A stretch of 20,544 nt of DNA from an uncultured Deinococcales bacterium (GTDB lineage Bacteria > Deinococcota > Deinococci > Deinococcales > JAAFIG01): NCBI GenBank assembly GCA_964247135.1, contig CAXTTL010000067.1:1-20544 (forward strand). The letters are read 5' to 3'. A model generated the notes under the pieces. It saw only the letters and a program-made list of their open reading frames with translations, searched no databases and was not told the DNA's origin. Numbering within the stretch: position 1 is the first letter of the stretch; every line of letters begins with the position of its first letter. The position numbers and the translations under genes are program-made. Positions 1,045 through 17,288 of the stretch are shown in pieces.

Positions 1045-1239
1045 TTCTTGACCCTGAAAGCAGCACCTTCTTGATGCCAAAACGCACCCTCTTGACCATA
1101 AAATGCACCTTACGGGCATGGTCGCTTCTTGACCATAAAATGCACCTTACGGGCATGGTCGCTTCTTGACCCTGAAAGCAGCACCTTCTTGATGCCAAAA
1201 TGCACCTGGCGGGCGGCATCGCTGACGGGCTTGGGTCGC
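1045..1239 (+). repeat. Tandem and nested cluster of 37-40 nt hairpin micro-elements (variants A, B, C)
   Basis: Order: A-left 1045-1067, B-left 1068-1088, C 1089-1125, C 1126-1162, A-left 1163-1185, B 1186-1222, A-right 1223-1239. Complete units share (T/C)TCTTGA...GCACC...CGGGC...TCGC. Confidence 0.9.
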
Positions 1240-9278: not shown

Positions 9279-9917
9279 TTAAGGCTCAATATAGGTTTTA
9301 AAATGCTGTTCAACAATGTCAGTCACTTCGTCCACCGATTGTGTACCATCAACCTCGAGTGTACACAATCCAAGCCCGATGGCTTGTTGCCTCAAATCCT
9401 CAGACAACAGCAAATCACGTCTGAAAAGGTTTTCCCGAGCCTGAATTGGATCACTGATCTGACCACCAAAAGAACCTTTGTTGCGCCGAGTCATCGAATC
9501 TTGTTTGAACTTTTCGGAAGGGAACAAAAATATCGCCTGATGCGTATTTATGATTGTTGATGCCAGCAATCCAGGTGTGAAACCAAACCCCTCGGCAATC
9601 AAAAACCGACCAGCAGGCAACCAAATGGCGTGCAAATCCTCAAGTATAAAATTCCAACGATCCTGAAAAGACTGCATTGCTCGAGCTGCCAACGCTGCGG
9701 GACTGGGTTTAAGCCAGTTTTCCTCGAGCGAGGCGTTCATAAATTTCGCATAGTCCGCCTTGGTTTGGGCAAGACGACGATGATGTGGCACGTCGCTGCG
9801 ATCATAATGGTAAACCGCCCACCCGTTTCGAGTGGCAAGTTCCTGGGCAACTGTTGTCTTGCCAGAATCGGTTGCACCACCGAGAAATAAAACATTTGTG
9901 AAGGGATAATCTGACAC
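9279..9917 (-). CDS. P-loop NTPase / kinase-like hypothetical protein
   Basis: Walker A LFLGGATDSGKTTVAQELA and C-terminal VDGTQSVDEV typical of the NMP/shikimate-kinase fold. AGGAGG RBS 5 nt before GTG 9917. Confidence 0.75.
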   Translation of the reverse strand: MSDYPFTNVLFLGGATDSGKTTVAQELATRNGWAVYHYDRSDVPHHRRLAQTKADYAKFMNASLEENWLKPSPAALAARAMQSFQDRWNFILEDLHAIWLPAGRFLIAEGFGFTPGLLASTIINTHQAIFLFPSEKFKQDSMTRRNKGSFGGQISDPIQARENLFRRDLLLSEDLRQQAIGLGLCTLEVDGTQSVDEVTDIVEQHFKTYIEP

Positions 9918-10033
9918 AAAAACCTCCTGACAGAACTTTATCGCCTCGAGCTTGGCGCAGACAAAGCAATTGCACACTGTCATCCGAGTCAGAATCGGCT
10001 ATACTTTCAAAAGATCAGCAAGCGATTCACCAT

Positions 10034-13117: not shown

Positions 13118-13181
13118 GTAGGGGTGAACCTTCTTGACCATAAACGCGCACCTTGCGGGCATGGTCGCTTGTGTTCACCCT
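13118..13181 (+). repeat. GTAG-type REP palindrome interrupted by a micro-element
   Basis: GTAG-GGGTGAAC-c[insert 13131-13168]ttgt-GTTCACCC-T. Confidence 0.8.
13131..13168 (+). mobile_element. 38-nt hairpin micro-element (variant C) in REP loop
   Basis: TTCTTGACCATAAACGCGCACCTTGCGGGCATGGTCGC, near-identical to 1126-1162. Confidence 0.75.
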
Positions 13182-16613: not shown

Positions 16614-17288
16614 TTAGGAGATGGCAACGAATTCAATCCAACCTGGCGAAATCTTCGTACATGAATTACCTTCACCACACAATCTTTCAAGATGCAAGCC
16701 TTGTTTCCAATCCAAGAAGTACATGATTTCCCAAGAATTTACTTCTCCCAACCCGTGAGACTCCATGACTGGGATCATAATTTCTCTGCCATTACAATTT
16801 GGATGAAGCCGTAAAGGAATGCCCAAAAACGATTGTTTGAGAACAATGTCTTGCTTTTCTGTGATTGTATTGTCGTTGCAAGGATGATTCCCAATTTTGG
16901 CACGGATTTCTGTGGCAACCCGCTCAAACTCGGCTTTATTTTCTTTGAAGATTGAAGAAAATTTCTCGTCGGTTCGATAACCGTTCTTAATGAGTTTATA
17001 TTCCACAAACTCTCGAGAATATTTGGGGACTTGTAATCCAAAAAGAGCAAAAACCAAGAATGCAATCAACGAAGCCCCAGATGCAAAATTTTGGAGACTC
17101 TTGATTTTCCAAATGCGAAAAGCAAAATTGACAAACCCAATGCTGACTATAGTAAAAATTGGAACGTTTATGATGATTGCAAAGCCTCCAACGGATAGTG
17201 GATTTTTTAGCCAAACGAATGAAGCATAGAAGAACAACCCCAAGAAAATCAGGTATCCTAAAATCACAGTTCTATTCGTTCTGAACAT
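16614..17288 (-). CDS. Hypothetical membrane protein, low GC
   Basis: 224-aa ORF with three N-terminal TM segments and a soluble C-terminal domain with 4 Cys; AAAGGA RBS. Confidence 0.7.
   Translation of the reverse strand: MFRTNRTVILGYLIFLGLFFYASFVWLKNPLSVGGFAIIINVPIFTIVSIGFVNFAFRIWKIKSLQNFASGASLIAFLVFALFGLQVPKYSREFVEYKLIKNGYRTDEKFSSIFKENKAEFERVATEIRAKIGNHPCNDNTITEKQDIVLKQSFLGIPLRLHPNCNGREIMIPVMESHGLGEVNSWEIMYFLDWKQGLHLERLCGEGNSCTKISPGWIEFVAIS

Follow-up and report, generated by a model that had tools for sequence, protein, structure and literature searches.

The repeat cluster at positions 1031-1255 of the window, by which we mean the whole 20,544-nt stretch of DNA analysed here, is made of a real self-nesting micro-element that stands in a two-way relation with an RNA-guided IS110. 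The best explanation is that successive precise insertions of a non-autonomous 36-40-nt hairpin built the cluster; taken jointly with a single-strand enzyme that acts in trans, this account is on balance probable. The window is contig C67 of a 5.09-Mb, 386-contig, 84%-complete MAG (G000, hereafter the genome).

The element has a constant layout: a linker of 1-2 nt (T, G, C, A, TG, TC and TA are seen), an invariant TCTTG, a covarying stem, an A-rich bulge, an inner stem, a hypervariable loop and an invariant CGC. The pattern of the full element has 150 copies in the genome and none in the reversed genome, so the element is not due to chance. Iterative peeling yields 176 strict elements from 214 loose candidates, the other 38 being dropped as not fitting the element. 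With the linker the strict elements measure 35-40 nt, and 175 of the 176 fall at 36-40 nt. The outer stem varies between variants, yet it is Watson-Crick paired in 528 of 550 cells, compared with a mean of 354 and a maximum of 385 under 1000 shuffles; these values come from 110 distinct copies that are related by kinship and thus are not independent. The covariation across variants points to recognition of the structure and not of the sequence. The loose pattern has 33-323 matches in 17 of 19 genomes of the family and 14-179 in seven genomes of a second family; the remaining of 364 genomes have at most 9 matches and controls 0-4. When two elements lie less than 120 nt apart, they are nearly always co-oriented (53 of 54 adjacent pairs). 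A search of the whole window against Rfam at the gathering threshold returned no family, and we found no description of the element itself in the literature, most subscription journals being outside the coverage of the search.

All the parts that the original prediction had recognised in the cluster were recovered where it had placed them. The following features of the window all lie on the + strand:

172-918, + strand: ABC permease (PF00528), upstream neighbour of the array
1031-1044, + strand: left arm of the host repeat, one of a family of longer palindromic repeats; the insertion point lies directly after the final base of the arm
1045-1067, + strand: left half of variant A, ending GCACC, lacking its right half
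1068-1088, + strand: left half of variant B, inside the loop of A, lacking its right half
1089-1125, + strand: complete variant C, copy 1, with linker base C, inside the loop of B
1126-1162, + strand: complete variant C, copy 2, end-to-end with copy 1
1163-1185, + strand: second left half of variant A
1186-1222, + strand: complete variant B, inside the second A at GCACC|T
1207-1239, + strand: 33-nt unit (B-right plus A-right), an extra copy of which would balance the array
1223-1239, + strand: right half of variant A
1240-1255, + strand: right arm of the host repeat
1405-2244, + strand: protein with a weak Glucodextran_B match, downstream neighbour of the array
13131-13168, + strand: solitary element of this family, inserted in a GTAG-type REP loop
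13297-13333, + strand: solitary element, its right end decayed, in a further GTAG-type REP

The complete B folds into a bulged hairpin of about -5.8 kcal/mol (DNA parameters). The host repeat is found empty on contigs C89, C96 and C314, and singly filled on C40, C104 and C244. The breaks in the array had been said to fall right after GCACC each time. This holds for all three breaks inside A and B, but the C-to-C and C-to-A joints are end-to-end and follow a right end. The first A and the first B do lack their right halves, as had been claimed, and the array has six left halves and four right halves. It probably represents A[B[C,C,A[B]]] short of one copy of the 33-nt direct repeat, lost by slippage or in assembly, and we favour this loss among the three causes proposed for the missing halves (deletion, duplication and assembly collapse); a 33-nt tandem would collapse easily, be it in vivo or in assembly. 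Variant A comes first in every filled copy of the host repeat (contigs C40, C67, C77, C104, C122, C229 and C244), which suggests either a joint spread of host repeat and A or a choice of target that is not the same for all variants.

The array as a whole could also be an artefact of short-read assembly over 37-nt repeats, which we consider very improbable. The genome is a MAG of 386 contigs in which several clusters stop at contig ends or N gaps, and none of the contigs, all from relatives, in 4 of the 8 listed sequencing runs extends across 1031-1255. However, the A[B] compound and the arrangement of host plus A are found balanced on other contigs, and nests recur in 15 of the 19 family genomes. 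An artefact could alter only the copy number in the window, not the phenomenon of nesting.

Throughout the genome, balanced loop nests are split at GCACC|T without exception (36 of 36), the right halves of nests close in last-in-first-out order, and both the host repeat and sister IS genes have exact empty alleles. These findings bear out the proposal that arrays grow by self-nesting; breakpoints scattered at random over other clusters are not what the nests of the genome show. There are also four unbalanced nests, two of them in the window, and 29 placements end-to-end. Element loops are filled in 41 cases and empty in 161 (about 20% occupancy); occupancy is 11-35% in four REP classes and 7 of 10 in the host repeat of the window. 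Splits outside the loop occur at the element's own left end (in the genome one case is clear and a second probable, and another genome, G013, has one more) and once in the stem (G005). The left-end and stem splits indicate that the rule is an exposed C|T-like site and not GCACC as such, and the claim that breakpoints always follow GCACC thus has to be confined to the balanced loop nests. The related idea that each element carries its own target needs a similar correction. The loop is favoured, but it is one target among several, which include REP loops, neutral transposase genes (on both strands) and the element's own ends, and non-self sites hold 107 of the 176 copies.

Nests might instead be by-products of recombination and replication slippage between abundant repeats, with no insertion at all. 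Slippage predicts end-to-end arrays of mostly one variant, and 17 of 22 end-to-end neighbours are of one variant; the unbalanced clusters are also in its favour. But nested pairs never share a stem variant (0 of 34; permutation mean 3.7, p = 0.011), the closing order is strict, and single copies are found in unrelated genes with exact empty alleles, which homology-driven exchange does not yield. As a general account we give this little credence; it is largely refuted for the loop nests, and plausible for the tandem arrays and for the missing halves in the window.

The junctions specify the position of the crossover. Insertion removes no host bases. At REP sites where the next base is not T, the right junction retains the host base in 17 of 18 cases (three REP classes), and at A|T and G|T sites, for which exact empties are available, the left junction retains the host 5' base. 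Since host bases are retained on both sides, the crossover must lie between the two bases of the site dinucleotide, which is usually C|T; C|A, C|C, G|T and A|T are also used. C|T is described as the RAYT cleavage site in single-stranded DNA, with C|A cut as well by one RAYT (PMC8266576), and the top-strand cut of IS621 is reported to fall after CT (PMC11208158). The crossover of the element thus corresponds to the RAYT-type cut position and not to the IS621 top-strand cut. The variable linkers hint at a staggered two-strand overlap in preference to one clean cut.

The second partner in the relation is the only PF02371 match in the genome, a 1191-nt IS110 on contig C51. Its recombinase has the PF01548 and PF02371 domains and scores 197.7 bits against NF033542 (cut-off 140), and it sits inside an element at GCACC|T. 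Its left end contains the predicted stem/internal-loop/stem-loop target loop of a bridge RNA. The target guides match the occupied site at 8/8 positions on the left and 7/7 on the right, the donor guides match the IS's own joined ends, and the circle junction has -35-like and -10-like hexamers 17 nt apart (a match to consensus only). By its sequence, this IS110 is of the IS621 type, with a CT core.

The right end of this IS clade is present in 11 of 364 genomes, all of them carriers of the element. It is absent from 13 of the 24 carriers, many of which are incomplete MAGs; the 13 include G142 (5 contigs, 95% complete). An element right half follows the IS110 right end in 24 of the 24 cases inspected (one decayed) among 29 found, and this right half is sometimes that of the innermost unit of a triple nest. 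Among 117 metagenome matches, 7 loci bear the IS and give the same picture, with the element right half after 6 of 6 readable right ends. Of 11 copies, 10 have a right target guide identical to the occupied loop, with 7 guide variants (permutation mean 1.7; 0 of 200000 permutations reach 10). This covariation of guide and site shows that the putative bridge RNA is programmed for the loop of the element.

The element, in turn, invades the IS110. One or more elements occupy a single position of the left donor guide in 11 of 14 readable IS copies. The inserts span 39-85 nt and comprise at least four variants; they are not monophyletic on the transposase tree and include tandems and nests. In none of the readable copies is the similar GCACC-type site of the target guide occupied. 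Genus g1 has the insert in all 6 IS copies seen. Target and donor loops are said to be able to come from different RNA molecules (PMC11208158), and insert-bearing IS copies could therefore be rescued in trans. No report of a repeat inserted in the donor guide of a bridge RNA was found in the literature, again with most subscription journals outside the coverage. Element insertions are also found in the IS110 coding regions of seven loci (L018, L019, L029, L037, L040, L145 and L152), often in frame; in two genomes, two different variants have entered at the same codon position.

Several individual loci add to the description of these IS110 copies. The donor loop of L152 has a second element on its other side, just before the right donor guide. 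At L040 (G013), an element left half is fused to the left target guide of the IS110 and the IS left end is deleted, which looks like recombination through the shared motif. One of five copies of the left end of a sister IS110 (L088, in G134) has a different insert of about 60 nt in the donor loop, and the target of this sister is a long Deinococcus repeat, entered at or close to a position that the hairpin element uses too. L030 (G014) is the locus of another IS110, distant at 29% identity, whose donor is IS621-like; it lies in a CCCTCATCCCC-type repeat, which is another host of the element. Many loops of G142 begin with CC instead of CT; this would remove the IS110 core and is possibly an escape from the IS110.

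We lean towards a single-strand cut-and-join enzyme, supplied in trans, as the mover of the element, with the IS110 as a mutual parasite. The travelling form of the element would be single-stranded and folded, probably a small circle, and the enzyme would cut and join at exposed C|T-like sites with a chemistry like that of HUH/Y1 enzymes. The element's own loop would serve as one preferred insertion site, and the IS110 would be a second tenant, aimed at this loop, whose donor guide the element in turn invades. The genome encodes three RAYT-like proteins and an IS200 TnpA. RAYT matches are present in 17 of the 19 family genomes, and RAYT genes are flanked by GTAG REPs, the hosts of the element. 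However, none of 5 Deinococcaceae carriers has a RAYT over the cut-off, and carriers G043, G124, G140 and G142 have no Y1 match. The lack of any single candidate enzyme in all carriers counts against a mover of the HUH/Y1 type; carriers without candidate enzymes may reflect loss after spread or incomplete genomes. Thirty RAYT loci were fetched among the 70 matches listed; an inverted element pair flanks none of them, and 4 have one element copy. A GTAG guide is absent from the element, whose 5' letters also depart from the guide rule published for RAYT. No dedicated nuclease is found at six close element pairs in the genome or at the 30 RAYT loci, and no nuclease gene recurs by the copies among 658 frames in low-copy genomes, as compared by sequence clustering without family scans. 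An autonomous parent with the element's ends and a second bridge RNA for the element junction were also considered and rejected, neither having been found in the genome. IS200/IS605 elements have two terminal hairpins and a pairing of guide to cleavage site. The element was rejected as a member, because it has a single hairpin and its observed ends are not those predicted from the 5' letters; at 11 loci with IS200-type genes, no element lies nearby.

An alternative mover is the IS110 recombinase, in which case the element would hijack the bridge RNA. An element that lands at 5|6 of the left donor guide would rewrite the first five letters of the guide as its own right end. The head-to-tail junction of the element would then look like an IS110 donor, with a CT core and directly after it the TG that the IS itself has, and the element would be copied out as a single-stranded circle and inserted by half-match reactions. 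The filling of one donor-guide site by several variants, the empty GCACC-type site in the target guide and the restriction of the IS to carriers all fit such a mechanism. In IS621 numbering, CT occupies 8-9 and TG 10-11 of the element's junction; the bottom-strand cut would fall at top-strand 5|6, the observed crossover (inferred from PMC11208158). Read as sequence, the junction matches the donor loop only in part, at the core and two right bases; the left arm matches the donor guide at 6/7, only with an element-bearing guide and for only one right-end class. For IS621, both the release of single-stranded circles and recombination at half-matches have been reported (bioRxiv 10.64898/2026.08.31.748434). 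Against these stand the distribution and the targets of the element. TTC loops are enriched among hosts in the genome (15/36 vs 25/149, p = 0.003), but a 17-genome comparison of guides, from which G009 and G018 were left out for having too few copies, rejects steering of nesting by the IS110 target loop. Nest occupancy does not track the target guide of the resident IS: the preference for TTC loops extends to genomes whose guide is TGAC (11/49 vs 21/142) and to those where no IS was found (48/185 vs 42/319), and it is not significant in the genomes with a TTC guide. Most targets of the element are not donor half-matches, and the IS right end is missing from the 13 carriers noted above, G142 included. 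Bottom-strand integration by CazIS110 is reported to be >1300-fold weaker than top-strand integration (bioRxiv 10.1101/2025.10.25.684509). Nor are IS110 genes a special hotspot when compared with 51 IS4/IS5/IS630 regions (6 sense-strand sites in 7.2 kb vs 26 in 47.6 kb of other transposase genes, p = 0.24). The genome has no copy of the bridge RNA elsewhere. The element as a canonical passenger of the IS110 was rejected as well, because non-T REP sites keep the host base (17/18) and occupancy ignores the resident guide. We consider movement by the IS110 recombinase unlikely, and we are equally doubtful of the broader scenario of a two-way arms race, in which a 37-base parasite reprograms an RNA-guided recombinase while the IS110 evolves its guides against a hypervariable loop.

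The element could, finally, move via an RNA hairpin or a host ligase, topoisomerase or relaxase, with no transposase involved, and so spread in any Deinococcota cell to which other IS elements carry it as a hitch-hiker; this, too, is improbable. Carriers do exist without Y1 matches, without this IS110 or without reverse transcriptase, and 3 of 5 carriers checked have no IS110 domain. Copies ride inside IS3-, IS630- and Tn3-like genes of Deinococcaceae (families assigned from translated motifs). In 109 of 110 copies one strand has T.G as its foot pair, and such a wobble is compatible with RNA as well as with DNA. But all 4 Deinococcaceae carriers tested lack reverse transcriptase, the orientation of the element is not biased to that of neighbour genes (21 co-oriented, 26 opposed), both strands of transposase genes are hit, and none of the results names a host enzyme. 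As an observation on the genome itself, its only reverse transcriptase domain is in a 552-aa frame at G000:C4:51732-52355.

The small dispersed repeats SDR1-8 of Nostoc and relatives, reportedly described by Elhai and colleagues in 2008, resemble the element in several respects. SDRs are 21-27 nt long, insert precisely into other repeats and nest within themselves, and their mover is not known. We know of no RNA-guided IS aimed at SDR loops. Like SDRs, the element is very small and dispersed, its structure is kept by compensatory changes (176 strict copies, 528/550 cells), and it inserts precisely into other repeats and into itself. It differs in length (36-40 nt against 21-27) and occurs in a different phylum; the likeness is one of description. 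SDR5 is treated in PMC4390886.

The element shares with the REP/REPIN-RAYT systems the form of a short non-autonomous bulged hairpin (as described in PMC8266576 and PMC3116915) and the geometry of single-strand cutting and joining at C|T, sometimes C|A (PMC8266576). Unlike them, it has an invariant 5' motif TCTTG and no GTAG tetranucleotide, no cognate RAYT flanked by it, and carriers without RAYT; the GTAG REPs here are hosts of the element, not the element itself. IS621 and ISPpu9/ISPpu10, of the IS110 family, are reported to insert in REP sequences (PMC11208160; PMC12288879; bioRxiv 10.64898/2026.03.19.712850). The tenant IS110 resembles them, as they are presented in these sources, in its two guide loops, CT core, junction promoter and choice of an abundant hairpin repeat as target. 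It is distinguished by a target that is itself mobile and has a hypervariable loop, with which the guide covaries over 7 loop variants, and by the invasion of its donor guide by that target. ssr9 of ISPpu9 is likewise described as a small non-autonomous unit tied to an IS110 and present elsewhere in the genome, but it encodes RNA and has IS-type ends (PMC12288879). The element is ~37 nt long and does not encode a bridge RNA; a top-strand cut after CT does not fit its junctions. Within the same phylum, the small non-coding repeats (SNRs) of Deinococcus radiodurans are reported to be mosaic (PMC1978522); the element, compared with them by description only, is similar in being a modular, mosaic intergenic repeat, and in several species it is found inside long Deinococcus repeats.

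A conserved regulatory role of the array at its locus was rejected, because the flanking genes have other neighbours in the genus. The permease and the gene downstream are not linked in relatives where both were found, and other genes precede the downstream gene in all 5 relatives. Two further open reading frames of the window, 9282-9983 and 16617-17288 on the - strand (234 and 224 aa), have no Pfam match. The genome is also rich in a second short sequence, CTCGAG, with 33,926 occurrences against 1,369 expected from base composition and a Markov expectation of 27,443 from its own sub-words, as in HIP-like highly iterated palindromes.

For the study of how repeats of less than 50 bases move, this family of elements offers exact junctions, empty alleles, near-complete carriers of cultured type and few movers that could be tested. 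Even with the IS110 as a mere tenant, the relation is a natural case of a bridge-RNA target guide that tracks a variable loop. The donor-guide position that holds hairpins of 39-85 nt may be an insertion-tolerant site for the engineering of bridge recombinases, or a natural off-switch. If the element does hijack the bridge RNA, it would represent a new kind of parasitism on RNA-guided enzymes and a natural mechanism of guide hijacking, which could also explain the movement of SDR-like micro-repeats.
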